DNA of 64,000 nt from Escherichia phage RB43: sequence record NC_007023.1. The stretch is one strand, 5' to 3'. The notes under the pieces were generated by a model. That model saw only the letters and a list, made by a program, of their open reading frames with translations. It did not search any database and was not told where the DNA came from. The position numbers and the translations under genes are program-made. Of the stretch, positions 4,445-39,085 are shown piece by piece; positions within the stretch are counted from its first letter, which is position 1, and every line of letters begins with the position of its first letter.

Positions 4445-4912
4445 TTATCCGTCATAACCGCCACCGCACTTAACCTCACCTTCAATGAACAGTTCGCGGT
4501 TGTCTCTCAAAAGATTGTATTTCTTTTCGAGTTCCGGCCCGAATGCGTCAGCGTCTTCATAATAGCTATAATTATAACAACCGCATTCATCATCCCATTC
4601 AGGTTCATCACCGCGTTCGTTGAAGTGTACGACTTTGAGATCGTCAACTCCAGACTCTTTCATTTTATCCCAGATATACCGGATGTCAACGCTATGGTAA
4701 CTGAATGCTTCAAGGGTGATGTTATCACCATCGATTTGAGGGATACCCCATTTAGGACGTTGGTCATCGGTGATGATATCAAGCAAAGATTCTACGTTTT
4801 CGTGTCCGTAAATCTTCGCGACCTCTTCCTCTTTACCAGGACGAACAAGCCCGATCCCGATAATAAAGCTACTGCTTGAACTGTTACTTACAAAACCAGA
4901 ACGGATCTTCAT
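4445..4912 (-). CDS. hypothetical protein with conserved N-terminal leader MKIRSGFVSNSSSSSF (paralog A)
   Basis: 155 aa; N-terminal 16 aa identical to gene 8362-8844 with synonymous nucleotide differences; acidic W/Y/C-rich C-terminus. Confidence 0.6.
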   Translation of the reverse strand: MKIRSGFVSNSSSSSFIIGIGLVRPGKEEEVAKIYGHENVESLLDIITDDQRPKWGIPQIDGDNITLEAFSYHSVDIRYIWDKMKESGVDDLKVVHFNERGDEPEWDDECGCYNYSYYEDADAFGPELEKKYNLLRDNRELFIEGEVKCGGGYDG

Positions 4913-5100
4913 CGTCTTGCCTCATATTTCGCGTTCTCCGCGATTTTTTCTTGATAGATGTTATATGACATTACCAGAGGCGCAATCGCCACGATAAGCC
5001 CTATAAAGCACACAGAGAACTCACGTTTATTGAAAGCCAGGAACGCAATTGCGCTCCCGACTACAAACACACCTAATGCCAGTAAGAAGAATAGCGTCAT
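4909..5100 (-). CDS. small membrane protein (2 predicted TM helices)
   Basis: 63 aa hydrophobic; ATGA overlap with downstream gene. Confidence 0.5.
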   Translation of the reverse strand: MTLFFLLALGVFVVGSAIAFLAFNKREFSVCFIGLIVAIAPLVMSYNIYQEKIAENAKYEARR

Positions 5101-5714
5101 TTCGGCAACGTGTCCATTTTGCGTGATTTTTCCAACAGGGTGTTGATTACCGTATCCATCGCCTGTTCTGTATCACCATCATGATAGATGATCGCGGTTT
5201 GATGCAAACCTTTCACCAGACGATTAATAATGTACGCCATTTCGGTCGGTAACAGTTTACCCGTTTCGTTGAATTTTTCAAACAGTTTGAACAGTTCTTC
5301 ATTATTCCCTTTCTTACTGAAATTGAAATCGTGCATACCAGACAGAAGACCATCCAGATACAGAACTGTTTTGTTATCAGAGCGGAGGTGTCCACCGATT
5401 TTGTAGTAGTTGCTGAAAACGTATGGCGCTTCACGAACATCATTGATTTCGAAACCAGCATCATCGATATTGCCTACGTGGGAGAAGAAATCCGCATCGT
5501 TATCGAACAGGTTGATCGCGCCTTTCTTGTACGGGAAGCCAGCCAGGTTAATGACTCCCTTTTCATACGCATCATCGTTATCAACGACAACGTATTCAGG
5601 AAGCATAGGGGCATACGGTTTGTTTTTGTCGTGGTTTTCGCGATACGCTAAAGGTTCAGCCAGATAGAGGATATCGCCTTGTTTGACTTCATCCCAAAAG
5701 ATATTACGTGACAT
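5097..5714 (-). CDS. hypothetical protein (~205 aa)
   Basis: Start moved to internal ATG 5712-5714 (RBS GAGGAA) because ORF-track N-terminus overlaps the vWA gene stop. Confidence 0.5.
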   Translation of the reverse strand: MSRNIFWDEVKQGDILYLAEPLAYRENHDKNKPYAPMLPEYVVVDNDDAYEKGVINLAGFPYKKGAINLFDNDADFFSHVGNIDDAGFEINDVREAPYVFSNYYKIGGHLRSDNKTVLYLDGLLSGMHDFNFSKKGNNEELFKLFEKFNETGKLLPTEMAYIINRLVKGLHQTAIIYHDGDTEQAMDTVINTLLEKSRKMDTLPK

Positions 5715-5754
5715 ATTAAATTCCTCAATATGCCCCCTTTCGGGGGCTATTTCA

Positions 5755-7974
5755 TTACAGTTTAACTTCTTTTTCTTCCAGAACGATTTCGCAATCGAAT
5801 GTTGCACCTTCCCAGAATTTATGCGGGATAATGTCAGTCGCTTTAACCGATACTTTGGTTTCTTCAAAATCCAGATCCGCAAACCAGGCGTGGCCTACAA
5901 CGATACCATACATTACACGGCTCAGGCGCTTGTTCAGTGCGCGTACTTCGTTGATGGTTGCCTTTGTTTCTTTATCAAGGTACTCGATTACCTTATCCTT
6001 GTCAAGCGCTGCGAGTTCAGCTTTAACAGAATCGTAAGCCCACAGGATGATCAGGTCGCCGTTGTTCAGTTTCTTCTTACCTTCGGCACGTTTCGCAACG
6101 GTTGCCGCTACAGCAGGAAGGGAGGAAACACCCTTGATTTTCAGATTCAGTTCTTTCGACATATAAACATCAGTCGAATCGGTACTGGTTACTTTCGGGG
6201 AGAATCCATAATCACGAATACCCTGTTCAGATAACCATTCACCAGCGGCTTCACCGTATTTCTGTTTCAGACCTTCGGCATTACGTAAACCGATCGCGTC
6301 GTCACGGAAGAACTTCATCACCTTCTGGCGACCTTTCAGGATTTCCAGACGGATAGAGTCGTTTACATACTCTTTACCGGAGATCCCGCGAGTCATCGCA
6401 CGGTTAACCAGGGGCAGACTGGTAAAGTCAACCAGTACCGACATGCGGTCTTCACCGATTTTTGCCAGCGGCTTGATAGTCAAACCAGAAGCGCGAAGGT
6501 TTTTCAGTGTCGGAATATCAGTTTCCAGCGGCAGAACCTTAACGTTTACGATACCGTCTTTAACGATGGTAAAGTTACGTACCTGCTTAGTTTCGATCTG
6601 TTCAGGCAGTTTCAGTTCTTTCTGTTTGCTTTCTGGGATAGTTACGTAACCCATCAGATCCGTGTTAATGGAAATGTTAGGACGTGAACTGTTACCGACC
6701 AGGTGCTTAACCGATACTTTGGTTGTAGTCTGGGTAAATTTCGGTGTCCAGATTTCATGCGTTACCATTTGCGCCGCAAGTGCTTTGCGTTCTTCCGGTG
6801 TTTTCGCGTTTGCAATCTGTTCAGACAGTTGATCCAGAGTATCATCTTCTTTCTGTACCGTCTGACGGCCTGTGCGGTTGTACGCCCAGTGTTCAGAGGA
6901 CAGGTCGATCACAGTGTCGGTTTCTGCCAGCAGTTCGAGAGCGTCAACCAGAGTGAACGCGTTTTCGTCTGGAACCATGTTGTAATCAACACCATCGAGC
7001 AGACGTTTAGCCGGATCAACTACCGCTTCCGCGATCAGGTCTTTCGCGTTGGAATAGTCCTGTTTGGTAAAGCAGTTATCATACGCCTTAATCAGACGAA
7101 CATCACCCAGCTTTTTCAGCACTTTCCATGCAAGGTCAGGGTTCATTGTGTGTAGCGCATGATACAGCACGACATACAGAACCTGTTCACCTTCCAGAGT
7201 AGCCGGATCGAAACCGTCGATGTCGTTGATTGCGTTATCACCCAGCGCCCAGATGTTTTTGATGTGCTCAGGAACCAGAACAACACCGTTTGCAGCGTTC
7301 AGGACATACACACGCCCTTCGTCCAGGTAGATAGCATGGGTTGCGTCAGCAACTTTAACTTCGACGCGAGCGGAGGTTTGCGCGGTGATGATTTCAGCAA
7401 ATGCTGGCTCGTATGCGTCGAAACCTTCAACGAATTTATGCAATGCGTTGGTTGCTTCTGCCATTTTTTCCAGCAGAGGACGGTTAACATAATAGCCGTA
7501 TTCCAGGAATGCAATGCTGTTAAACGTCAGCGGGAGAACCGCACACGCTTTCAGGATGTCATCGGTACGCCAGCAGTTATCATAACCATCAGTCAGGAAG
7601 ATCAGGCTGTTCAGGTTGCCGTTTTCGGATTGCAGGTCGGTTGCGATTTCAGCAGCCAGATTCAGTGGTTCAACAAAACCAGTACAACCAGTAGGTTTCA
7701 GATAACGGTCGATCGCGGTACAGATATTGGTCAGATCCGATACGTTGCTAACCTTCTCACCACGGAACACAGTACCGTAATCGCCTTTGCTGGAGAAGTA
7801 CAGGATCGAAACGGTGTCATCCTGTTTAACCAGACTCGCCAGGTTTGCTTTCAGGTGCTTACGGATCTTCGGCAGTTCGTTATACATTGAACCGGAAACG
7901 TCGCAAACGAAAACGTGGTTGGTCGGAGTCGGCTTAGATACTGCGTTTTTGAATTCGATATTTGTAATTGACAT
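5755..7974 (-). CDS. von Willebrand factor A (vWA) domain protein, 739 aa
   Basis: N-terminal MIDAS motif VFVCDVSGSM (DxSxS) and downstream IFLTDGYDN; long C-terminal region of unknown function. Confidence 0.8.
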   Translation of the reverse strand: MSITNIEFKNAVSKPTPTNHVFVCDVSGSMYNELPKIRKHLKANLASLVKQDDTVSILYFSSKGDYGTVFRGEKVSNVSDLTNICTAIDRYLKPTGCTGFVEPLNLAAEIATDLQSENGNLNSLIFLTDGYDNCWRTDDILKACAVLPLTFNSIAFLEYGYYVNRPLLEKMAEATNALHKFVEGFDAYEPAFAEIITAQTSARVEVKVADATHAIYLDEGRVYVLNAANGVVLVPEHIKNIWALGDNAINDIDGFDPATLEGEQVLYVVLYHALHTMNPDLAWKVLKKLGDVRLIKAYDNCFTKQDYSNAKDLIAEAVVDPAKRLLDGVDYNMVPDENAFTLVDALELLAETDTVIDLSSEHWAYNRTGRQTVQKEDDTLDQLSEQIANAKTPEERKALAAQMVTHEIWTPKFTQTTTKVSVKHLVGNSSRPNISINTDLMGYVTIPESKQKELKLPEQIETKQVRNFTIVKDGIVNVKVLPLETDIPTLKNLRASGLTIKPLAKIGEDRMSVLVDFTSLPLVNRAMTRGISGKEYVNDSIRLEILKGRQKVMKFFRDDAIGLRNAEGLKQKYGEAAGEWLSEQGIRDYGFSPKVTSTDSTDVYMSKELNLKIKGVSSLPAVAATVAKRAEGKKKLNNGDLIILWAYDSVKAELAALDKDKVIEYLDKETKATINEVRALNKRLSRVMYGIVVGHAWFADLDFEETKVSVKATDIIPHKFWEGATFDCEIVLEEKEVKL

Positions 7975-7984
7975 TTAGTTTTTC

Positions 7985-8221
7985 TCAGTATTTGGATTTG
8001 GTTGTTTTGTGTACATTTAAAATGCTTTGGATTTTTTCGGAAATCGTTTGCTGGTCTGGTTCACATCCCAACTTACCGCCAATCGCCTTGTAAAAATCTT
8101 CAACAGAGCTTACGTTGAAATCCGGCATATGGAAACCTAACGAGTACATATGCGGATTGTGGAATTCGTAAACATCCACATTGTATTCGTTAAGATCGAA
8201 ACGTTCAAGATATTTCTTCAA
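7985..8221 (-). CDS. hypothetical protein (78 aa)
   Basis: ORF in operon context. Confidence 0.45.
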   Translation of the reverse strand: MKKYLERFDLNEYNVDVYEFHNPHMYSLGFHMPDFNVSSVEDFYKAIGGKLGCEPDQQTISEKIQSILNVHKTTKSKY

Positions 8222-8361
8222 AGAAAATAAATCGAACGGTAATGGGAGGTGCTGTTCAATCGTTACAGGTTCCCCCAGCTTGTGCGCTTTCAGGGGTTGC
8301 CCCTTTCGCGTATGTCAGTTCTGTTTTCATCAGTGGTGACTCTTTTGATGTATATTCAAGG

Positions 8362-8844
8362 TTACGGAAAGATGTTTCCATGTTCCAGTTGGGTTCCAAT
8401 CGGGCCGCACTCGTCAGAGTACGTAAACTCGTAGATAAACACGCCGTTTTGATTCCCGTACTTCGTGTTGTATTCTTCATACAGCCACATCTTGATCAGA
8501 GCGTCTTTCTCTTCGGTTTCTAAATCGTACCAATCCCGACCATCATATGCAAGCGCAATTTGCGGATTTGAACGATAACGGGTTTCGGCGCTGTCTTCGG
8601 TTTCCCAATCATAACGCTTATCATCATAATACGATTCAAAGCTATTACCCATGTGACCGCCTAAGTCACGGTGAACGTGTTGAACAACTTCTTCGGATGT
8701 CAGCGGAGGATTATAATAACCGCAATTGGGAGAACAATCACCCATCATTTCGCGAAGGTTGTCGATATCAATCGGATCTTTCGGGAACCGGACGATAAAA
8801 CTACTTGATGAACTATTGCTCACAAAACCAGAACGAATTTTCAT
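8362..8844 (-). CDS. hypothetical protein with conserved N-terminal leader MKIRSGFVSNSSSSSF (paralog B)
   Basis: 160 aa; shares 16-aa N-terminus with 4445-4912. Confidence 0.6.
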   Translation of the reverse strand: MKIRSGFVSNSSSSSFIVRFPKDPIDIDNLREMMGDCSPNCGYYNPPLTSEEVVQHVHRDLGGHMGNSFESYYDDKRYDWETEDSAETRYRSNPQIALAYDGRDWYDLETEEKDALIKMWLYEEYNTKYGNQNGVFIYEFTYSDECGPIGTQLEHGNIFP

Positions 8845-9086
8845 TTTAACGCCTCGAATTTGATTTCTTTCAGTGATTGTGTGTGATTATAACAAACCAC
8901 TCCGCGATGTGTTTTCTTTCCGGTAAATCCGTCGAATATGGTGACATAATAATGATAGCAACAATCATCAAGAGGATTGTTTCTGATATAGTCTAACACA
9001 ACGTCCAACGATACGGTAGAGCATACGCAATCAGATTCATTGTCACGACCATCATAGAAATCTTTTTCAATACTATAAATTTTCAC
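8841..9086 (-). CDS. hypothetical Cys-rich protein (81 aa, GTG start)
   Basis: ORF; ATGA-type overlap with downstream gene. Confidence 0.4.
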   Translation of the reverse strand: MKIYSIEKDFYDGRDNESDCVCSTVSLDVVLDYIRNNPLDDCCYHYYVTIFDGFTGKKTHRGVVCYNHTQSLKEIKFEALK

Positions 9087-11290: not shown

Positions 11291-11992
11291 ATGCTAATAT
11301 CAGCAAGCAGTGTAGACGAATTGAACAGCAAGGTCAACGAAATGCTGTCACAAGGGATGTACTTATGGGGAAGCCCGTTCGTTGTCCCATCCGATTATCT
11401 GAACCAAACACGATTCTTTCAACAGGTTTCAAACGTAAATCCTTCGAGCGGCGGAACCGATGGAAAGAGTGCGTATCAACTATGGGTTGAACAACCAGGC
11501 AATGAAGGGAAAACACTAGATGATTTCTTTGATTCCATTGCAGGGGTTCGCAAAAAATCAGAGGTGTTCTGGACGGGGCTTAGTCTGGTGATCCCAGAGG
11601 ATACGCCGACCAACTTCATCAACCTGATTAAAGGGACCATTCCGACTACCGGAACATTAGAACCGTTCTTCAAAATTACAGACAATAAGTTACACCCGTT
11701 TAACGAAAACTCAACATTAACGTTTAAGCTGAACCTGAAAGGTACTTTCACAGGGGCAACAACCGCACAGCGTAGCGTTACACTTGATTTTGTCGGTACA
11801 CAGGGCAACACCCTCACTCTGAACCGCAGCCAATCGGTAACTACTAGCACCCTTTCTTTCGTCACGTTCTTTAGTGTCGATAAAAACGGAAATATGGTTA
11901 CTAATGGTACTGCATTCAACATTTTCGCAAACGGTAGCCCGTTTACTGTATCCGAAGTTCTTTTAGTCGCCGAACAGCGTACTACTCAATAA
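11291..11992 (+). CDS. putative virion/tail-fiber-like protein (Thr/Asn-rich, GKSAYQLW motif), opposite strand to surrounding early genes
   Basis: 233 aa; GGTDGKSAYQLWVEQ resembles fibre-protein motif; RBS AGAGGG; near-consensus late promoter upstream; bidirectional terminator downstream. Confidence 0.5.
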   Translation: MLISASSVDELNSKVNEMLSQGMYLWGSPFVVPSDYLNQTRFFQQVSNVNPSSGGTDGKSAYQLWVEQPGNEGKTLDDFFDSIAGVRKKSEVFWTGLSLVIPEDTPTNFINLIKGTIPTTGTLEPFFKITDNKLHPFNENSTLTFKLNLKGTFTGATTAQRSVTLDFVGTQGNTLTLNRSQSVTTSTLSFVTFFSVDKNGNMVTNGTAFNIFANGSPFTVSEVLLVAEQRTTQ

Positions 11993-12280: not shown

Positions 12281-12559
12281 TTAGTAGAACTTTCCATATG
12301 TGTTGAAATTGATACTTTCGTGGTTACGTTCATTGATCGTGATTTCATAATCGTAATCTTCATTAGTAACCGCGCGGTCGTGTTTGATAACGTTCACGTC
12401 ATAAACGCGGGATAACGCATGATACAAAGAATCACGGATCTTTTCAGCAATCTTCGCGGGTTCGCTATACATATTGAGCATATCAGCAACAATACCTTCT
12501 ACTCGCTGAATATCTCGCTGTTCGATGTATCCTACGTACAGGCTTACGTCTTTAATCAT
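12281..12559 (-). CDS. hypothetical protein (92 aa)
   Basis: ORF coupled to upstream nucleotidyltransferase. Confidence 0.45.
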   Translation of the reverse strand: MIKDVSLYVGYIEQRDIQRVEGIVADMLNMYSEPAKIAEKIRDSLYHALSRVYDVNVIKHDRAVTNEDYDYEITINERNHESINFNTYGKFY

Positions 12560-13554
12560 TTGTAATACCCCAGAACATGATCTTTGTATACCTGTTCGAT
12601 AAAGTCATTCCAGAATTCCCGATCGACTTCTTTCGGATAGGTAGAGATTGCAGCAAGGCGTTCAACTTCGCCCATCACTTCCTCCAGTTTTTCCTGTACT
12701 TCGGCAAACGGGACATTACCAGCTTTAACCGATTTCAACAGGTCACTCTCAGGAAGAGGGTACACGATATCGCCGTGTTTGTAAATCTGTACTAACTGCA
12801 TACCACCGCGCAATGCGTGACTTAATGCTTTCCAATCGATCCCGTTGTTGGCTTCTGCTTGTCGTGCGCGTTCGCCATATTCATCCCAGAGCTTGTACAC
12901 GGATTTCTTCATTTCCGCTACGGTGATCGTGAACTGGAATTTACGACCCAATACTTCATAGAAATTCTGCATACCGCCTTTTTCGCTATAATGCAAAATA
13001 GAACGACAGAATTCATTGGTCGGTAGTTGGTCTTTGATGTCGCCAACTTTGATGTTTTCTATTGCATCACCCAGATTGGAAGGCATACGCACAACGCGAG
13101 TATTTGGGGTGTCTTGTAACACGTCATACACTTCACGCAGTGCAGCCAGGCGAGAACCTTTCACACCATATTTCGCGGCTTGCTTACGGACATAACCGAA
13201 CAGGCCAGTTAACTCCGTAGTGTAGAAACGCCAACGGTTAGCGCGGATATACTGCCAGATTTCAGAGTTAGCGATCAGCTTGCTATCATCAGCATGAAGC
13301 ATATCGAGCGCTACGGTATCACCATCACACGCAAGGCTGATGAACTTAGGCAGACTATACAACTGACGGTCTACGTCATCAACGGTGTTTTTAGAGTTCT
13401 TATCGCCCGTGCTCGTGTCGATAGTCTTCGGGGCTTTACCTAGCAAGATATCGCGTGGATGCGGGAGGAAGATCCCTTTATAATCTTTGTCGCTTGTCGG
13501 GGTGTTCAGCCCGTACAGGTGAGAACCGAACACAGTTTCCATTACAATTTTCAC
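12556..13554 (-). CDS. Pol-beta superfamily nucleotidyltransferase (function unknown)
   Basis: 332 aa; N-terminal VFGSHLYGLNTPTSDKDYKGIF (hG[GS]...DxD) plus later VALDM acidic residue. Confidence 0.6.
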   Translation of the reverse strand: MKIVMETVFGSHLYGLNTPTSDKDYKGIFLPHPRDILLGKAPKTIDTSTGDKNSKNTVDDVDRQLYSLPKFISLACDGDTVALDMLHADDSKLIANSEIWQYIRANRWRFYTTELTGLFGYVRKQAAKYGVKGSRLAALREVYDVLQDTPNTRVVRMPSNLGDAIENIKVGDIKDQLPTNEFCRSILHYSEKGGMQNFYEVLGRKFQFTITVAEMKKSVYKLWDEYGERARQAEANNGIDWKALSHALRGGMQLVQIYKHGDIVYPLPESDLLKSVKAGNVPFAEVQEKLEEVMGEVERLAAISTYPKEVDREFWNDFIEQVYKDHVLGYYK

Positions 13555-15333: not shown

Positions 15334-16392
15334 TTAGATACCTGTAAATGCTACGACAATCTGATAGTGGTCATCGAAGAATTCCCCTTGTCGTTGTACG
15401 ACCTCATGTAAGGGCATCCAGAACGCGTCTAACGCATCGTCAGAACCGCCCATAATACGTGGTAAACTTCCATCATTGTTAGGTTCTAACTTGATGTATT
15501 GCGCCACAGTCGGTTTTGAGAAGTGTACAGAACGCTTCGGATGATCGAACAGCATCGAATTGCGGATTGAACCACGAATAACCTTTTCAGGAACCTTGAT
15601 CCGAACCTCTTCGAGCAGTTCGCGGATCGCACAATCCAGGAACGTTTCATTTGCGTTTTTGTGTCCACCTGGCAGGGCTAGTGCGCCTTTTCCTGGTGCA
15701 AACTTACGACGAATTACCAGCAGGTGATTGTTGCACACAACCACGTTATCACCCGTGCAGCAGTTTAGCGCTTCTGGGTATGGGTAATTTTTGAATTTCT
15801 CCAATTCACTTTCCCATTTTTCGAATTCGTAGTACAGTCGCCAAAATGTATCCGTCATCATCCATGAATTGATATAACTCACAGTAGACGGAGGAACATA
15901 ACGAGATAGTTTCTTGTCCCATCCATTCTTATGCAAAAAGGATGGTTGGTCGTAAATCGGTCGCAGATAAATCTTCCCATCAACCTTAACCGGATCTACC
16001 GGAACATGAGTCCATCCAAACGCTTTCAGCCAGTATGAATCAGCATCTTTTTCGTAACCATAGATCGCGATGTTATCGCCTTTGGTTTCGTTGATTGCTG
16101 TACGAACAGAAGTTTTCCATTTTTCTTCGTTGTAAAGATAATCAGGAATATGAGCAAACTTAACACGACAAACATCTTCGTATTTGTATTCAGTCATCAG
16201 CCACGAAAAGATCATTCTTTCGCGTTCGTTCGCGGTCAGAGGATTTAAAACGTTGGGGTATGCGTAGGCAGAACCCAGGAGGATGTAAACGGTCTCCGAC
16301 TCTTCCAGTGCTTTACGCACCATCGCCGCATGACCATTATGGAAAGGTTGGAATCTGCCAATCACGACAGCTTTATCAAATTTGTGTTTCAT
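15334..16392 (-). CDS. bifunctional nicotinamide-mononucleotide adenylyltransferase / Nudix hydrolase (NadM/NatV-like)
   Basis: GRFQPFHNGH (HxGH nucleotidyltransferase motif) plus Nudix box GGHKNANETFLDCAIRELLEEV; start likely ATG 16390-16392 with GGAG RBS. Confidence 0.85.
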   Translation of the reverse strand: MKHKFDKAVVIGRFQPFHNGHAAMVRKALEESETVYILLGSAYAYPNVLNPLTANERERMIFSWLMTEYKYEDVCRVKFAHIPDYLYNEEKWKTSVRTAINETKGDNIAIYGYEKDADSYWLKAFGWTHVPVDPVKVDGKIYLRPIYDQPSFLHKNGWDKKLSRYVPPSTVSYINSWMMTDTFWRLYYEFEKWESELEKFKNYPYPEALNCCTGDNVVVCNNHLLVIRRKFAPGKGALALPGGHKNANETFLDCAIRELLEEVRIKVPEKVIRGSIRNSMLFDHPKRSVHFSKPTVAQYIKLEPNNDGSLPRIMGGSDDALDAFWMPLHEVVQRQGEFFDDHYQIVVAFTGI

Positions 16393-16417
16393 AACGTGCT
16401 CCACGTTTAAAGGGTAA

Positions 16418-16515
16418 TCATAAAACAGACGCAATAATCAATACACCAAGCAAACCGCCAATAAAGCCGAAGAATGACGAAATGAAGATAGACAATATAA
16501 TCTGTTTTATGTTCA
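16418..16515 (-). CDS. possible 32-aa hydrophobic peptide
   Basis: Short ORF MNIKQIILSIFISSFFGFIGGLLGVLIIASVL with weak RBS. Confidence 0.25.
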
Positions 16516-16588: not shown

Positions 16589-17494
16589 TCACTTTGCCAG
16601 CGTAATCAGAACCCATGACAGTTTGAGGTACACCACCTTGTAGCGGGTAGAGTAGTTCATCTGTACATCCAGTTCTTTCCAGCGGATCATTTCTGGTGTA
16701 ATGGTGCGCTGCAACACGGCGTTCGCTTCTGCTTCTTTACGGGCCGCATACAGTTTAGCATCAGCATCACGTTCGTTTGCGAGTGCTTCATTTTCACGCG
16801 CCTGACGATTTGCTTCTGCCTGTTTTACCTGTTGTTGAGAAGTTTGCTCAACCTTCGCCAGTTCAGCACGAGCGGCGTTAACCTGTTCTTCACGGATCTT
16901 CGTGTTAGTTACCTGTTCCATGATAACATCTGGCAGGGTAATATCCTGCAAGAATACCTGTTTCACGGTGTAACCATACGGTCGCGCATACTCTTCAACT
17001 TCCTGCTGAATCGCAGTTTGCAACTGGTTCTGGATCTTTGCGTCGAACAGATCCTGTGCTTTCGGAACTGATTTACCGAATTCGCGAACAGTGGACAGCA
17101 ATTTTTCGGTTACGTATTTATCCAGAGCTTGTTCCTGGTCGCCAGCGTTGATACGGTTAATCGGTGCTTTGTTACCGTCGAATTGCAACATCACGGTCAT
17201 GTCAACAGTCGATTTAAATTTATCCTGGGACGGAACCTGCAACTTGTCGAATTTCTTCGCGATATCTTTCGTACTGAAAGTATCGAAGTCAGCCAGTGGG
17301 TTTACGATATGGAAACCAGGCATGACAGGTTTCGGAGAAACTTTACCCATAAAGGTCTGGGTTTTGACCGTACCGTCCTGTACGATGGTAAAGGAGTTCG
17401 GAACCAGCCACAGTGCAGCAACTACGCCCAGAGCGATCAGAGTGGTTTTCTTCGGGTTGTCACGGATAGTATTAATATTCATAGTATGTCTCAT
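16589..17494 (-). CDS. SPFH/band-7 (prohibitin/HflK/C-like) membrane protein
   Basis: N-terminal TM helix, SPFH-like core, C-terminal Ala/Gln/Glu-rich coiled coil. Confidence 0.65.
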   Translation of the reverse strand: MRHTMNINTIRDNPKKTTLIALGVVAALWLVPNSFTIVQDGTVKTQTFMGKVSPKPVMPGFHIVNPLADFDTFSTKDIAKKFDKLQVPSQDKFKSTVDMTVMLQFDGNKAPINRINAGDQEQALDKYVTEKLLSTVREFGKSVPKAQDLFDAKIQNQLQTAIQQEVEEYARPYGYTVKQVFLQDITLPDVIMEQVTNTKIREEQVNAARAELAKVEQTSQQQVKQAEANRQARENEALANERDADAKLYAARKEAEANAVLQRTITPEMIRWKELDVQMNYSTRYKVVYLKLSWVLITLAK

Positions 17495-17562
17495 TTGATT
17501 AAAGTTTATGTTTCAATTCGATAGTTATTCTATCATCACCATTTCGCTTGTCAAATACTTTT

Positions 17563-17947
17563 TTAAGAAAGTTTTGTCAGCTTGTAAATCGTTTGATAGC
17601 ACAAGCCTTTGATCTCGTCCAGTATGTTCTTCAATGAACTGTCTACTGATTCGTAGATATCGTTGGCTTCGGTGGCTATTTTACGGAGATACGCTACCGT
17701 GTCAAGCACATTTTCAACTTTTAATACGGGGTTTATAACGTCCTGTAATGCCTATATGGATTTCGGTGAATTTGTCTACCAAATCCTGCATATCTTCGTA
17801 AAAACCCTCGTATGCCTTATGTTGCGAATATGACCCCGTCATAAAATGTGCGCTGTGCATATACGTAACAGACATCAGGCATGTGCCAATAAAGGCATCT
17901 ATTTTACTTGTATTATCGCGCTCGACGATTTCGTTAAACGTTTGCAT
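17563..17947 (-). CDS. hypothetical protein with apparent frameshift near 17750 (weak ferritin-like 4-helix guess)
   Basis: ORF 17714-17947 continues in another frame as ALQDVINPVLKVENVLDTVAYLRKIATEANDIYESVDSSLKNILDEIKGLCYQTIYKLTKLS. Confidence 0.3.
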
Positions 17948-17957
17948 CTTTCATCCC

Positions 17958-18242
17958 TTATGAACGGTGAATAGAAGCAAATTCAGTTGCTACCCTAAGC
18001 CCTAAGCGTTTGCATTCAGGTTCAGATTTACACTGCTTCTGCTGCCATTTTCGTTCCATGTAATTATAGAATAGTTCACTGGTATTTACGCTGGGAGGGA
18101 TGGTGTCTAGATACACCTGTAGCGCTGCATTGATGTAATAGTCGAACTCTTTTGCGACCACAGAACGGTCGTCTGCTTGCGATGCTGGAGACAAAATTAA
18201 CAAACCAAACATCAGCGCTTTTGATATGCGTTTAATGTTCAT
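17958..18242 (-). CDS. small secreted protein (signal peptide ...ASQA|DD)
   Basis: 94 aa; N-terminal hydrophobic signal sequence. Confidence 0.5.
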   Translation of the reverse strand: MNIKRISKALMFGLLILSPASQADDRSVVAKEFDYYINAALQVYLDTIPPSVNTSELFYNYMERKWQQKQCKSEPECKRLGLRVATEFASIHRS

Positions 18243-18347
18243 AGCAATTCTCTAAGTGCTTACGGATCAACAATAGACCCGTTCCTGTATATATTTATAG
18301 CAAAAAAGGGGCTAAAAGCCCCTTATGTTAAATTAATCTAAAAATAC

Positions 18348-18741
18348 TTATGTTATATCGTACCAGCATAAACCACGTTCATAAGCACGGATCTTATTGG
18401 CATTGTGAATGTTTTCATCCCATCCAATCACACCCGCTTTCATGCGTTTCAGTTCCTGGCGCATTTTAACGCGTACTTTTGAATCAATCTTTTTCTTTGC
18501 GATCGAAAGCATCGCGGGAGATATCACCATGCGCCTTGTTGCCGTCACGATTCAAATTGTTATCGAACCGGATATATGCGCAACCTGATTTATGTTTCCA
18601 GTTGGTTGTGTACCAACGAAGACCATCAGGATCGCGCCCGTGTTGTGCATAATACTCAGAATATGCCTTTGTCTCTTCGATCTGTTCCAGAGAAGAAAGG
18701 TCACGGATAGGAACATATTTGTTACGGTAAGTACGGCTCAT
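18348..18741 (-). CDS. hypothetical protein, apparently split by frameshift in an A-run (~18488-18500)
   Basis: ORFs 18484-18741 and 18348-18548 overlap at AAAGAAAAAGA homopolymer. Confidence 0.4.
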
Positions 18742-18771
18742 AGATATCTCCTTTTGTTTTCTAATTGCAGA

Positions 18772-19353
18772 TTAGCAATCTACGCCAACTTTATCAAGCA
18801 CTTTTTCATGATAATGTTTCCGGCATAACGAAACATATTTGTCTTCGGCTCCGATTTCGACTTGCTCCCCTTCGGTTACGAAGTTGCCTTGTGCGTCGAT
18901 ACGCGCGACCGTGGTTGCTTTGCGCCCACAGTGACACATTCCCCGTAGTTCTCGGATCTCGTCAGCCCATGCGAGCAACCAGTAAGAACCCTCGAACAGA
19001 TTCAACTGAAAGTCGGTACGCAGCCCGTAACACATTACAGGAATTTCGAGTTCATCAACAACGCGACACAGATCGAAAACGTTTTTCTTCGAAAGGAACT
19101 GTGCTTCGTCAACAAAAATACAGGAAATATTATTCCGGCGTTGAATGTCCCAGAACAGATCCATGCTGGGTGAAATCAGTTCACATGATGCGCTTAACCC
19201 TACGCGAGAAGACACCGTATGTGAACGAGTATCAAGCATAGGCTTGTAAATCACTACGTTCATACCACGTTCTTTGTAGTTGTATGCGTCGGTCAGCAGT
19301 CGTGCGCTTTTACCAGCATTCATTGATGCGTAATGATAATACAGTTTAGCCAT
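18772..19353 (-). CDS. tk: thymidine kinase
   Basis: P-loop MNAGKS, FVDEAQF, C-terminal Zn motif CHCGRKA...C. Confidence 0.9.
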   Translation of the reverse strand: MAKLYYHYASMNAGKSARLLTDAYNYKERGMNVVIYKPMLDTRSHTVSSRVGLSASCELISPSMDLFWDIQRRNNISCIFVDEAQFLSKKNVFDLCRVVDELEIPVMCYGLRTDFQLNLFEGSYWLLAWADEIRELRGMCHCGRKATTVARIDAQGNFVTEGEQVEIGAEDKYVSLCRKHYHEKVLDKVGVDC

Positions 19354-19529
19354 TTGCAGCGTCCTTGATCTCTTTCTTCACGAACAGAATGATATCTTCG
19401 ATTTTGTTTTCGATGTAGCACATGTTTGACATTACGCGCTTCTGTATCATCATCGGTCGCGTAGTCCATGTATAATTCACCCAGTTCTTTCAGTTTGTGC
19501 GTCAACAGCTTTTCTTCTTGCGGTCTCAT
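19320..19529 (-). CDS. hypothetical protein (69 aa)
   Basis: ORF. Confidence 0.35.
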   Translation of the reverse strand: MRPQEEKLLTHKLKELGELYMDYATDDDTEARNVKHVLHRKQNRRYHSVREERDQGRCKWLNCIIITHQ

Positions 19530-19711
19530 TCGCGAGATTCCCTTCTTTCATCGTCGATTAGCTGGTCGATGAAATCAACGATGTCATCAAACCAATCTAC
19601 GGCTTCTTGAGCAGAAACCGAACCTTTCCCACTACCACTCATAAAGCGTTCGCGAGCGTCAGCAAACTTTTCGAGTTTTGAATACAGCTTTTCTTTATGT
19701 TCCTGGATCAT
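19526..19711 (-). CDS. hypothetical acidic protein (61 aa)
   Basis: ORF; ATGA coupling. Confidence 0.4.
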   Translation of the reverse strand: MIQEHKEKLYSKLEKFADARERFMSGSGKGSVSAQEAVDWFDDIVDFIDQLIDDERRESRE

Positions 19712-20200
19712 GATAAATCTACCGTTTTCATGTTAACGTAGGGATCGAAATGTACCACGATGATTGGATAGTCGCCAGTGGCCTTATCAATGATGTCATA
19801 GATGCGCATCCAATCGCCCCCAGCAAGCCCCGCACCAATAAGAGGGGTAACGATAGGCAATTGAACAGGACACGCCTTAGCGCGTTCTACAGCAGATTTG
19901 AAGCATGATTCAATCGCATCATAATCGACTTGTGGGCCTTCACCCCAAAATTTGTATTGGGTGTACGCGTTAAACAGAAGTTTGTTTCCGTCCTGATAAA
20001 CGGAGTTACGCCCCAACTTAGATTGATTGCCCTTCATCGTCATTGCGTCTTCTTTAAACGCACCAGGGATCTTTTTCTTCACTTCTTTGGCGATACCCGC
20101 GCCCATGTTACCAGAAACCAGTTACCACCCCATGAATTAGGTGTACATCGCGATTAAGGAACAGTTCAACCGCGTTACCTTTGATTTCTTTAATGATCAT
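19708..20200 (-). CDS. macro-domain (ADP-ribose-binding/processing) protein, apparent frameshift near 20107-20120
   Basis: Upstream frame MIIKEIKGNAVELFLNRDVHLIHGV... joins MGAGIAKEV..., reconstructing an HGxN(C)xxxMGAGIA macro-like N-terminus. Confidence 0.45.
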
Positions 20201-20292
20201 TGTTTATTACCCATTCGATAGCCGATCCCAATAACCAGCCCCATTATAATCACAACAGTGATCAGTATTGCAAATTGCATACCTATGCTCAT
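20197..20292 (-). CDS. possible 31-aa membrane peptide
   Basis: MSIGMQFAILITVVIIMGLVIGIGYRMGNKQ; ATGA overlaps on both sides. Confidence 0.25.
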   Translation of the reverse strand: MSIGMQFAILITVVIIMGLVIGIGYRMGNKQ

Positions 20293-20435
20293 TTGAATTG
20301 ATCATCCCATATTTGCCACGCTTCCAGTTCATCATTGTATTCAGGTAATGAACGTTCGCCAGGCTTCATTAAACAGTACCATATGATAATTGCAACAGCA
20401 ATAACCATTCCATAGAAAATAATTAGTCCTATCAT
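20289..20435 (-). CDS. possible 48-aa membrane peptide
   Basis: MIGLIIFYGMVIAVAIIIWYCLMKPGERSLPEYNDELEAWQIWDDQFK; ATGA coupling. Confidence 0.3.
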   Translation of the reverse strand: MIGLIIFYGMVIAVAIIIWYCLMKPGERSLPEYNDELEAWQIWDDQFK

Positions 20436-20758
20436 CAATATAATCCTATTCCGGCGTTGTACTCGTCAACCAAGTAGGTACGCAACTTTTCACAACGTTC
20501 CTTATTTGGTGCGCTAGTACATAGTTTCATCATCGGTTCAGACTGCAAAAACTCACGCTGTTTAGCCAGCTTTTGACGCTTAACCAGGTGCGCGTTTTCT
20601 TCGCCCCACACATAAGCAGCGTCCAGTTGTTCCGCGATCACCTGATAACATACAGCAGTATCTTTAATGTCGCGATGGTCGCAGAGTTCAGAAAGACGGT
20701 TGTCGTCTGCATACGCGAAACCAGAAACCAGAGTCAATAAAAGCGCAAGTTTTTTCAT
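20435..20758 (-). CDS. small secreted protein (signal peptide ...GFAYA|DD)
   Basis: 107 aa; N-terminal signal sequence. Confidence 0.5.
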   Translation of the reverse strand: MKKLALLLTLVSGFAYADDNRLSELCDHRDIKDTAVCYQVIAEQLDAAYVWGEENAHLVKRQKLAKQREFLQSEPMMKLCTSAPNKERCEKLRTYLVDEYNAGIGLY

Positions 20759-20759
20759 G

Positions 20760-21425
20760 TTAACCTCGATATGTCACGTCTTCGATAGGGTTATAGTAAT
20801 GATTCTTGCAAATATACGCAAGTGTTTTTCGTAGGCTTGCGCTGGCAAACAGAGGATCGCGGTTGTACGTCATAGAACGATAGGTGTGTACTTCCCAGAC
20901 TTCCCGATCAGTATCATACACGAAGCAATAGCTTTCATATTCAGACAGCATATGATCCATGATGTCGAAATACAGTTGTTTGTTTTCGTTCATCTTAACA
21001 AACGGCTTGATCAACTTGATTGCTTCATAAACCTGGTCAAGATTGCTATGGTCTTCATTCATCGCAACACGAATAACTGATTGATTCGTGTCTGGATTAT
21101 ATGTGTTGGTTGCAACACCAAGTTCATAAAAGAAGTTAGCAGCATCGCGATATGTTTCACCACCAGTGCGGGGAGAATTCAGGTAATACTCAATACGTTT
21201 TTCTACAGAGGAACTCCGCATAATGACGGCCTTTATGTCATCAATTCGTTCCTGCAAGTCAATACGCTTTTTGTTTAGTTCCGTAGCACGTTTTTGGAGT
21301 GGTTCAAGCTGGGTTCTTACTTCGTCAAACTCACTTGTAATGGCTGTCAACTGCTTTTCTAAGGTTTGGCTCAACATAGAAGTTGCGTTTTCGTTTACCT
21401 TATTCATAGCTTCTGCGTATGTCAT
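20760..21425 (-). CDS. hypothetical protein (221 aa; N-terminal coiled coil)
   Basis: ORF. Confidence 0.5.
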   Translation of the reverse strand: MTYAEAMNKVNENATSMLSQTLEKQLTAITSEFDEVRTQLEPLQKRATELNKKRIDLQERIDDIKAVIMRSSSVEKRIEYYLNSPRTGGETYRDAANFFYELGVATNTYNPDTNQSVIRVAMNEDHSNLDQVYEAIKLIKPFVKMNENKQLYFDIMDHMLSEYESYCFVYDTDREVWEVHTYRSMTYNRDPLFASASLRKTLAYICKNHYYNPIEDVTYRG

Positions 21426-21427
21426 GA

Positions 21428-21829
21428 TTATTCCCCTAATACATATTCAAAACGATGTTCCAGCGCATCATTAACGCTTTCGTAAACTCCCCCAATACGT
21501 GTAGCCTTACGAATGCCGGACTTGACAATATTCATGATCTCGACGTTACTACCCCAAACATTCAGGTTGAAATACAATTCGCAATCGATCGGATGGTCGT
21601 TTGTGTCGTAATACATGTCACAACCTTCGCAAACAAACAGTGTACGCTTTTCGTCGCCATACTGGAAGTGAATGTTAAACGCAGACATACTATCTTTATC
21701 AACAGTAATGTCAATGATGCGAACCTTTGGGTTGCTTTTCAGTTCGGTAAGAACACTTTGGATAACATGCAGAGTGTTCAGCTTGACAATCCCTACTCTG
21801 CCTACAATGACTCGATGTGATGTACTCAT
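21428..21829 (-). CDS. hypothetical protein (133 aa)
   Basis: ORF downstream of promoter element F. Confidence 0.5.
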   Translation of the reverse strand: MSTSHRVIVGRVGIVKLNTLHVIQSVLTELKSNPKVRIIDITVDKDSMSAFNIHFQYGDEKRTLFVCEGCDMYYDTNDHPIDCELYFNLNVWGSNVEIMNIVKSGIRKATRIGGVYESVNDALEHRFEYVLGE

Positions 21830-21896
21830 AATTTAATCCTCAATGGTTGATGCACACATAATAAAAAAGCCCCTGCAAAAATGCAAGGGCTTTTGA
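21830..21896 (-). promoter_or_regulatory. PeSL-like element F (TTGCAT-17-TATTAT with hairpin GCCCCTGCA...TGCAAGGGC)
   Basis: -35 at 21881-21886, -10 at 21858-21863 (minus strand). Confidence 0.5.
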
Positions 21897-22532
21897 TCAA
21901 ATAATTTGCTTTTCTTCTAACAGTTTCGCGGTATGGTTAACCATGCGAGCATATTCACGGGCTTCTTTCTTTCCATACTTAAAGCCAGCGTTATAACTCG
22001 CGAGCGCCTTTTTCAAGTCGCCTTTGTGGTAATCAAGCCAGTATTCCAGTTCATGAATAGCGTACTTAGAACCGCCCCGAAGGGTTTCAAGCGTTTTGAT
22101 TACTACGCGTTTGGAATATGATTTATCCATCCGTGCTAAAGCACTATTTGCGGTTACTTGCCAGCACCCGTAAGCGTGATGACCTTTCTTACCCTTTCCG
22201 GTGTTCTCACATGCGCGAGACTCGATCCAGGCAATAGCCGCTAAATGATATCCCAAACGTTTCGATTGTTCCGTTTCAACAGGTTTTGCAGTTTTGAGAT
22301 CATACTCGTTTCCGATCCTGAAAGCATACTCCAAAACCTTTTTCTGCTTTGGTGTAATTTCGTCCAGTTCCTTCACATATGATGGTGCTTTCTTGATCAC
22401 TGTTGCTTGTTGAAGCGGTAATGTTGACTGATAAGCCGGAAGTTTTTCGATGAATTCCCCAAGCGGATCTGTCTTTGCGTGACCAGAAAAAGAGCATAAG
22501 AAAATGCTGGTCGCTAAAATAATTTTCTTCAT
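21897..22532 (-). CDS. periplasmic lytic transglycosylase-like protein (SLT-type)
   Basis: Signal peptide; SLT-like AIAWIESRA...AYGCWQV...SYNAG. Confidence 0.6.
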   Translation of the reverse strand: MKKIILATSIFLCSFSGHAKTDPLGEFIEKLPAYQSTLPLQQATVIKKAPSYVKELDEITPKQKKVLEYAFRIGNEYDLKTAKPVETEQSKRLGYHLAAIAWIESRACENTGKGKKGHHAYGCWQVTANSALARMDKSYSKRVVIKTLETLRGGSKYAIHELEYWLDYHKGDLKKALASYNAGFKYGKKEAREYARMVNHTAKLLEEKQII

Positions 22533-37456: not shown

Positions 37457-38080
37457 TCACCCATTATGTTTAAAGTATTCGATCTGACGCAGACGTTTTT
37501 CTGCTGCATCTTTCGAATCATATTCACCAAGTTCTTTCGTGCGGTCCTGATTGAGTATAACCCATTTATCGCCGCGCTGTTCGATGTGCTCCGTGATATC
37601 TTCAACAGTCTTATCGAGATCCAACGATTCAGCATCTTCCTCGATAATAGTCAAATCAACAGGCAGTGTCAACAGCCTTTTCACTCCGCTGATATCTTCT
37701 ATGCGGGAATCATACGCAAGCGTAACATGCGGTTTGTAATCGTCGAAATCATACGTTGCTCCGGCATCCATCGCATCTTTGAAACGGCTATGCAGATAAT
37801 CAGACTCCAGAACACCAACGATTGTATTACCATATTTCGTGTCCCACTTTTCGACATCAACCAAACGGGCAGGTTCAGAGATACCGGACGCAGGGAACAA
37901 ATCAACCGTTTTGCGGCTATACACAATCGTTGTATGCAGTTTTGCAGCAGAAACAGGATTCTCTACACCCAGAAGTTTTTGCACCTGTGCAAGCGCTTCA
38001 CAGGAAGCCTGATCGAACTTCGCACACATATACACACCTGGATCTTTCACAGGTTTTGCAACTTCAAGAAAACTTTTCAT
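37457..38080 (-). CDS. 2H phosphoesterase-family protein; positional counterpart of T4 gene 57B (Acb1-like anti-CBASS phosphodiesterase candidate)
   Basis: Two H-x-T motifs (HTTIVYS, HVTLAY); lies directly downstream of gp57A-gp1-gp3 as 57B does in T4 (from memory). Confidence 0.55.
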   Translation of the reverse strand: MKSFLEVAKPVKDPGVYMCAKFDQASCEALAQVQKLLGVENPVSAAKLHTTIVYSRKTVDLFPASGISEPARLVDVEKWDTKYGNTIVGVLESDYLHSRFKDAMDAGATYDFDDYKPHVTLAYDSRIEDISGVKRLLTLPVDLTIIEEDAESLDLDKTVEDITEHIEQRGDKWVILNQDRTKELGEYDSKDAAEKRLRQIEYFKHNG

Positions 38081-38422: not shown

Positions 38423-39085
38423 TTAAAAGTTAATTACACTAAGCACGTTAGCTTTCAATTCACTAAGCGTACCATTATTTAGGATGATAATATCAGTTGG
38501 TTGAGGGTTCAAACCTTTCTCAGTTGAATGGCTGTCATCCTCTCCGGTTTTCTCGTTCGATGAATACGAACTTAGGCCCCGAACTTGCTCAGGTATTTTA
38601 TATTCATGTTTTTGTCGAACATCCGTAATGATAAAGTTATCTTTATCGGAACGCAACATTTTCTTCAATACAATATCGACCCATACAATATCGTTATGAT
38701 TACACACGATATCAGTACCGAAAACCTGCATCAGTCGGCGTATTGTCCAGGGCTGTGTATTGGTTCTACAGATTTCATATACTGCTGTATCAACAGCACC
38801 AAGCCAATAGCCCCGCTTCTCTAACCGCTTAACCCCGAAGTCGAAGACTTTTAGTGCATCTTCGTTAGACATCAACAGGGGCGCTTCTCGATCGCCTGTA
38901 TAGAATGGGTTGGTTTTAGTCAGTTCACGCAAGTAACGGTTTCCCGATTCCTTCATCCCGTCCGACAGAATACTTTTGATCTCGTCAGCGAGCGCGAACG
39001 CTTCGACGTTTTGATAGTCATCTAAAACGAACTGGGTAGCGGTGTCTTTACCCGTTCGTTTTTTACCACAAATGCAATAAATCAT
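38423..39085 (-). CDS. 1: deoxynucleoside monophosphate kinase (gp1)
   Basis: P-loop CICGKKRTGKDT; size and synteny with gp3. Confidence 0.85.
   Translation of the reverse strand: MIYCICGKKRTGKDTATQFVLDDYQNVEAFALADEIKSILSDGMKESGNRYLRELTKTNPFYTGDREAPLLMSNEDALKVFDFGVKRLEKRGYWLGAVDTAVYEICRTNTQPWTIRRLMQVFGTDIVCNHNDIVWVDIVLKKMLRSDKDNFIITDVRQKHEYKIPEQVRGLSSYSSNEKTGEDDSHSTEKGLNPQPTDIIILNNGTLSELKANVLSVINF

Follow-up and report, generated by a model that had tools for sequence, protein, structure and literature searches.

A stand-alone vWA protein of Escherichia phage RB43 with a predicted ArnB/Sec23-24-type core and a conserved C-terminal module of its own

RB43ORF119c of Escherichia phage RB43 encodes a protein whose first 320 residues can be placed, on the basis of predicted models, in the ArnB/Sec23-24 class of vWA proteins, and behind this core we delimit a large, conserved C-terminal module that has no known match. 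The gene lies in a 64,000 nucleotide stretch of the phage genome (NC_007023.1; "the window" below, position 1 being its first nucleotide) and has no AAA+ partner and no conserved neighbour across its family. The size of that family is also new, as is its restriction to phages; its members come almost entirely from phages, typically large lytic myoviruses and jumbo phages. Considering the ATPase-free class of the vWA core together with the module fused to it, we tentatively propose, at a confidence a little below even, that RB43ORF119c is a cytoplasmic, MIDAS-dependent, ATPase-independent binding adaptor in which the module would be an effector or a second binding surface. Coordinates of the features discussed are collected in Table 1.

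Homologues carry the label 'VWA domain-containing protein', and annotation of both the gene and its vWA domain goes back to 2006, when Nolan et al. listed RB43ORF119c (E 0.02) and Aeh1ORF154c among their Pfam vWA matches (PMC1524935); the vWA call as such is thus an old one. A literature search on the family returned that listing, generic 'VWA domain' annotation and an unrelated phage Ro60 paper, and no characterization. RB43ORF119c is a real, well-conserved phage gene: the ORF list and translation give an ATG start and 739 amino acids, phrog_2426 (for which PHROGs gives no function) matches the protein over its full length with 1135 bits, and 263 homologues are found at E≤1e-3. Positions 5000-9000 of the window are 99.9% identical to HE981739.1 (Pseudotevenvirus RB43, isolate RB43-GVA), in which base ~63,608 corresponds to base 1 of the window, and the product is identical to CCL97584.1 of that record, annotated there as 'protein of unknown function'. 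Horizontal acquisition, as judged by GC content, was considered and rejected because the 47.6% of this gene is unremarkable beside the 44.0 ± 2.6% of the large ORFs. Two + strand ORFs inside the gene (6703-7890; 150 and 243 amino acids) are antisense shadows, and equivalent ORFs cluster over 31-34 lineage groups for the sole reason that the sense gene is conserved. Immediately upstream of the gene, the window differs from RB43-GVA by single-base insertions of G, T and A at 8293, 8343 and 8368, which disrupt two small ORFs (114 and 170 amino acids in GVA); either one of the records contains sequencing errors or the isolates truly differ.

Table 1. Features of RB43ORF119c and its 3' flank, in window coordinates.
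Feature	Position	Strand	Basis
RB43ORF119c, whole gene, 739 codons + stop (5755-5757)	5755..7974	-	ORF list, translation, identical RB43-GVA CDS
N-terminal strand E2-6, residues 1-16, proposed first part of vWA-split beta-sandwich	7927..7974	-	
vWA domain, residues 17-200	7375..7926	-	
MIDAS motif D24-V-S26-G-S28	7891..7905	-	translation; at least 90% conserved in alignment
MIDAS Thr97	7684..7686	-	invariant in 40-sequence alignment
MIDAS Asp128 (LTDGYDN)	7591..7593	-	invariant in 40-sequence alignment
Five beta-strands after vWA, residues 201-245, putative second part of beta-sandwich	7240..7374	-	
Predicted four-helix bundle, residues 246-320, equivalent to ArnB C-terminal bundle and Sec23/24 helical domain	7015..7239	-	
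Family-specific C-terminal module, residues 351-739, mixed beta and long helices	5758..6924	-	
GC-rich hairpin GCCCCC-GAAA-GGGGGC, between vWA stop and RBS/ATG (5714) of next gene	5732..5747	-	terminator scan and sequence

An N-terminal vWA domain with an intact MIDAS (DVSGS...T...D) had been recognized in the initial annotation, and both hold up. Three Pfam profiles agree on residues 21-176, each by a small margin (bits/gathering score: VWA_3, 28/27; VWA_2, 27.7/27; VWA, 25.8/23.8), and this profile match, the Rossmann-like alpha/beta vWA fold and the complete MIDAS together mark the protein as a member of the vWA superfamily. The MIDAS residues are in place and the site is nearly universal in the family; metal binding by it is predicted. 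In an alignment of 40 full-length homologues, with identities as low as 32%, T97 and D128 never vary, and conservation of D24, S26 and S28 is 90% or higher. Of the 118 full-length matches of a first search, 117 carry DxSxS, as do 121 of the 126 cluster representatives that a library search returned at full length. The motif is missing from gene calls truncated at the N-terminus and from one DTTGS variant.

The sequence beyond the vWA domain had been described as some 540 amino acids of unassigned sequence, a description that stands for most of its length and fails for about 150 residues, which the predicted structure resolves into the beta-sandwich and the four-helix bundle of Table 1. The best structure match to the phage model is the vWA protein of Catenulispora (4FX5; score 23.9, alignment length 286), followed by ITIH1 (6FPY; 22.8, 271) and ArnB (8S05; 22.6, 266); the ArnB paralogue vWA2 (5A8J; 17.4, 252) and Sec24 and Sec23 (16.1-16.5, 268-297) also match over these lengths, and the AAA+-coupled proteins NorD (17.8, 179) and BchD (16.9, 171) match within the vWA domain. 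A vWA domain that splits a beta-sandwich and is then followed by a helical bundle is common to ArnB, 4FX5, E. coli YfbK and the Sec23/24 core (PMC12852372). Because of these matches and of that published arrangement, residues 1-320 look like an ArnB/ITIH/Sec23-24-type core consisting of vWA domain, beta-sandwich and four-helix bundle. The order of the secondary-structure elements and the alignment lengths suggest the split-sandwich topology, and the bundle follows directly after the sandwich in the predicted model.

Among the nearest known systems are two regulators of the archaellum network in Sulfolobus acidocaldarius, ArnB (8S05) and its paralogue vWA2/ArnE (5A8J). Sequence identity to ArnB is about 15%, and ArnB stops after the bundle (at about 380 amino acids), whereas the phage protein adds a module of about 390. 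ArnB is moreover controlled by a kinase and binds the ZnF/FHA protein ArnA, whereas no such partner is encoded near the phage gene: the CxxC (zinc-finger) motif is absent from RB43ORF119c and from 15 neighbouring RB43 ORFs, and only Ackermannviridae, 4 of the 45 lineage groups defined below, have a zinc-finger gene (DUF3268) some 1.4 kb upstream of the homologue. The uncharacterized Catenulispora acidiphila protein 4FX5 (426 amino acids) also lacks the C-terminal module and is uninformative on mechanism. ITIH heavy chains and other VIT-vWA proteins are secreted proteins with an N-terminal VIT domain and, in many cases, sorting signals; in the phage protein, by contrast, the vWA domain begins at residue 17, no VIT domain, signal peptide or sorting signal was found in RB43ORF119c (which ends in ...LEEKEVKL), and the VIT-vWA model TIGR03788 of NCBIfam ('marine proteobacterial sortase target') scores it at 25 bits against a cut-off of 552. 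It differs from the Sec23/Sec24 core of the COPII coat in having no zinc finger or gelsolin domain match, at 9-13% identity, and nothing suggests a membrane-coat role. A Ku70/80-type beta-barrel after the vWA domain was likewise not found. PADLOC defence and anti-defence profiles gave no match to RB43ORF119c at E≤0.1, and a known family of either kind was dropped as its identity.

The C-terminal module, from about residue 350 to 739, is beta-rich at 407-520, has long helices at 532-560 and 637-691 and ends in a terminal beta unit. Its conserved motifs are YNRIGR, RPNISI, RNYTIVKDG, PLINR, GIRDYGFSPK, KIKGLSSLP and WF, and the polar residues R430, N432, S434, D472, K550 and Y603 are invariant in the 40-sequence alignment; conservation is 0.63 in segment 591-635 and 0.55 in segment 521-590, compared with 0.60 in the vWA domain. 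The module is mildly basic (pI 8.3) and the core is acidic. A domain search of the sequence past about residue 200 was uninformative: Pfam gives no match to residues 245-739 even at E≤5, PDB sequences give none at E≤10, and the fold of the module has no counterpart among the solved structures (PDB folds). BFVD returned four significant matches, all of them uncharacterized phage proteins, one of which is a 361 amino acid protein of Bacillus phage SP-15. When a profile of the module was searched against 1.84 billion cluster representatives, 1318 proteins matched at E≤1e-3 (791 at E≤1e-30), and nearly all of the best 150 of these 1318 are 700-820 amino acids long with the module at the C-terminus. 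One gene, P0256 (397 amino acids), encodes only the module, and is preceded by the end of an unrelated gene and a 157-nucleotide gap. Since P0256 is module-only and the structural match in SP-15 has just 361 amino acids, the module is apparently able to work without the vWA core; it folds alone and presumably works alone, and is almost always fused to the vWA core. With ~390 conserved residues and no structural or family match, the module would be worth a structure determination.

Pairing with a MoxR/CobS ATPase is common among bacterial vWA proteins, and RB43ORF119c has the same vWA fold and MIDAS as the CobT/CobS, BchD/BchI, NorD/NorQ, ViaA/RavA and CbbO/CbbQ systems. The earlier observation that no AAA+ gene adjoins it was borne out by Pfam scans of the neighbours, which found none within ±10 kb, and extends to the rest of the genome. 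A Walker A scan, strict and relaxed, of all ORFs of at least 150-180 amino acids in the whole RB43-GVA genome returned only T4-core P-loop proteins (gp46, PseT, gp41, Dda, gp44, Tk, UvsW and PhoH-PIN) and no MoxR/CobS-type ATPase, the scan being blind to non-canonical P-loops and to ORFs below 150 amino acids. No conserved AAA+ neighbour was found across 85 loci in 45 lineages, which include jumbo phages with ample coding capacity. Homology to CobT together with a CobS partner, the one finding that the initial annotation had named as contrary to its view, did not emerge either, as neither Pfam nor NCBIfam matches RB43ORF119c with a CobT, CobT_C or related profile at E≤1. CobT/CobS or MoxR pairing was rejected since there is no partner in the genome or the neighbourhoods and no CobT homology.

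The stand-alone status of the gene was examined across the family in 85 loci, including 80 from IMG/VR and four others, on contigs of up to 512 kb; grouping the loci by their vWA proteins, at 65% identity, gave 45 lineages, and flanking ORFs were clustered by all-against-all BLASTP. No general gene neighbour exists. The most frequent clusters are an HNH endonuclease (7 of the 45 groups), a GT51 transglycosylase (6), a ThiF/JAB block (5), NAPRTase (4) and Band_7 (4), and a conserved neighbour was abandoned as a clue to function because even the top cluster reaches only 7 groups. The gene is a true stand-alone gene, as had been claimed from the single RB43 locus. SPFH/Band 7 and vWA genes do occur together in Vi01-like phage ISTP3 and Vibrio phage VmeM-32 (loci L002 and L007), and both are present in RB43 and Aeh1 (PMC1524935). 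The SPFH/Band 7 protein of RB43 (16589-17494, - strand; annotated as a lipoprotein in records of related phages) shares ~80% identity with proteins from T5-like phages of Salmonella and Escherichia, an unusually high value for unrelated groups; as such proteins are common in T5-like phages, which are absent among the vWA matches listed, an SPFH linkage was discarded. An NMNAT-Nudix gene lies 7 kb from the vWA gene in RB43, and a NAPRTase (NadV-like) gene lies directly upstream of the homologue in some Ackermannviridae; because this involves only 4 of the 45 groups, we treat the proximity to NAD salvage as synteny and reject a functional linkage. In 4-5 lineage groups of one jumbo-phage clade (positions 17057-22187 of locus L058 and equivalents), genes for a ThiF (E1-like) protein, a Prok-JAB protein, an 84 amino acid ORF and a second vWA protein, CoxE-like, sit 2-10 kb from the family gene, a set that could represent a cassette for ubiquitin-like conjugation.

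Of 50,697 phage records, 502 (~1%) contain the module, and they come from phages of Klebsiella, Salmonella, Escherichia, Rhizobium, Enterobacter, Dickeya, Bacillus and others. Among 185,579 species-representative genomes only 8 have it, and several of these matches are on phage-like contigs. These 8 matches have uninformative contexts, and bacterial operon context was given up as a clue. A 32%-identical homologue lies on a 294 kb, ankyrin-repeat-rich and apparently bacterial metagenomic scaffold from ENA (locus L003), which also carries RNase II, a type II secretion ATPase, an HslU-like protein and CinA; it is apparently a rare cellular copy of the phage family. Carriers of the family include clinically used Klebsiella Slopekvirus, Salmonella and E. 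coli Kuttervirus, Dickeya Limestonevirus and many 300-500 kb jumbo phages.

In RB43 the gene lies within a 39-kb - strand block together with tk, dNMP kinase, Acb1, PhoH and methylase genes. This orientation is that of the pre-replicative genes in T4-type phages and is opposite to that of the structural genes, which suggests pre-replicative expression of RB43ORF119c. The T4 late promoter TATAAATA does not occur near the gene, an absence that is uninformative because the motif is at chance level in the window. The product would probably be cytoplasmic: the protein has no signal peptide or transmembrane segment, its N-terminus is not hydrophobic, and the maximum KD19 is 1.47, at residue 138. The hairpin behind the gene has a perfect 6-bp G+C stem and a GAAA (GNRA) loop with no U-run after it, and may be a 3' stabilizer or a weak terminator; Citrobacter phage Miller has a terminator annotated somewhere within the stretch matched by the window.

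vWA domains of the ArnB/ITIH/Sec23-24 class serve as stable platforms for binding and need no ATPase; the bound partner supplies an acidic side chain that completes the divalent cation held by the MIDAS. We therefore favour a MIDAS-dependent adaptor, in which a soluble protein would be made in the infected cell, its vWA core with the MIDAS-held divalent cation would capture an acidic residue of one specific host or phage protein, and the captured partner would be presented to the C-terminal module (~350-739), acting as an effector or a second binding surface. By analogy with this class the ligand of the MIDAS would be a protein, and an effector role of the module is likewise conjectural. The suggestion in the initial annotation, that the protein could bind a host complex by MIDAS-mediated contacts, finds partial support. 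Several points count against the adaptor model: a partner of the type used by ArnB, a zinc-finger/FHA protein, is not adjacent to the gene, the invariant polar residues of the module suit an enzyme as well as a binding surface, the module is apparently able to act without the core (P0256 and SP-15), and the structural class rests on predicted models.

The main rival to the adaptor model is that the C-terminal module is a new-fold enzyme (for example a transferase, ligase or hydrolase, with a protein or nucleic acid substrate) for which the ArnB-like core only recruits or positions the substrate. The strictly conserved polar motifs, RPNIS and RNYTIVKDG among them, are dense and accompany the six invariant residues named above, segments 591-635 and 521-590 are as conserved as the vWA domain, the module is basic beside an acidic core, and module-only proteins exist, all of which would fit an enzyme. 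Strong conservation could equally be accounted for by a binding interface, however, no catalytic family was matched in Pfam, NCBIfam, PADLOC, PDB sequences or PDB folds, and the module has no recognizable nucleotide-binding or metal-binding signature; we regard an enzyme as rather unlikely. The protein might instead be the vWA half of a MoxR-type chaperone pair that relies on an AAA+ ATPase of the host (RavA or a similar enzyme in E. coli). Such pairs are frequent among bacterial vWA proteins, and because the phage encodes no such ATPase a host enzyme is the sole candidate. The core is structurally nearer to the ATPase-independent ArnB, ITIH and Sec23-24 proteins than to NorD or BchD, however, and the 85 loci in 45 lineages have no conserved AAA+ neighbour; since the hosts are very diverse (Enterobacteria, Vibrio, Rhizobium and Bacillus), a single conserved host ATPase partner is unlikely, and we consider the whole idea improbable.

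Very improbable, in our judgement, is a virion- or tail-associated adhesin comparable to the vWA-bearing pilus tip adhesins. A few GenBank records do carry the label 'minor tail protein', but the gene and the structural genes are on opposite strands, its surroundings are metabolic and early-type genes, PHROGs assigns phrog_2426 no structural category, and proteomics of a Vi01-like phage recovered a single peptide from the homologue where structural proteins gave hundreds, the authors filing the homologue under DNA/RNA processes (PMC10892097). CobS/CobT pairs do occur in some marine phages. A CobT-like chelatase subunit with a metabolic role shares the vWA fold with RB43ORF119c and nothing else; the protein has no CobT/CobT_C Pfam match at E≤1, the Walker A scan of RB43-GVA found no CobS/AAA_5-type gene, and the architecture differs in its beta-sandwich, bundle and C-terminal module, so that this reading is effectively refuted.

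A bolder version of the adaptor model, which we offer as doubtful speculation, is that the family constitutes a hitherto unrecognized class of phage effectors in which the ArnB/Sec23-24-like MIDAS platform seizes a conserved bacterial protein, perhaps by way of an acidic tail or loop, and a new-fold C-terminal enzyme or scaffold modifies or sequesters this target. If true, large lytic phages would have in this family a widespread device for host takeover or counter-defence, and the family would provide the first prokaryotic-virus example of a Sec23/24-type core. The finding bears on no long-standing open question, and the class assignment and conserved MIDAS turn an unassigned ORF into a concrete experimental question.

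The surroundings of the gene in RB43 yielded some further observations. Within ±10 kb, its - strand neighbours are small ORFs (PHROGs without function) and genes for a C5 DNA methylase, an RlaP-like nucleotidyltransferase, the NMNAT-Nudix protein and the SPFH protein, and its + strand neighbours are baseplate genes. Two paralogous small proteins flank the vWA gene (4445-4912 and ~8329-8841, both - strand; 155 and 170 amino acids in GVA); they have the common N-terminus MKIRSGFVSNSSSSSFI and match phrog_7397, for which PHROGs gives no function, and the C-terminal part of the 155 amino acid protein has a weak match to a 'head-tail adaptor' PHROG. The NMNAT-Nudix gene (15334-16434, - strand) encodes an NAD-salvage protein that is NatV-like, and the nucleotidyltransferase (12556-13554, - strand) is possibly like T4 nrdC.11, which has been matched to the COG3541 nucleotidyltransferase domain (PMC1524935). 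A clear Acb1 anti-CBASS phosphodiesterase (Pfam E 2.8e-48) is encoded at 37457-38080 (- strand), adjoining the dNMP kinase gene at 38423-39085. Finally, the lone + strand gene in the long - strand block, at 11291-11992, encodes a 233 amino acid protein with an Sf6-type tail-needle-knob domain (E 8.9e-35).
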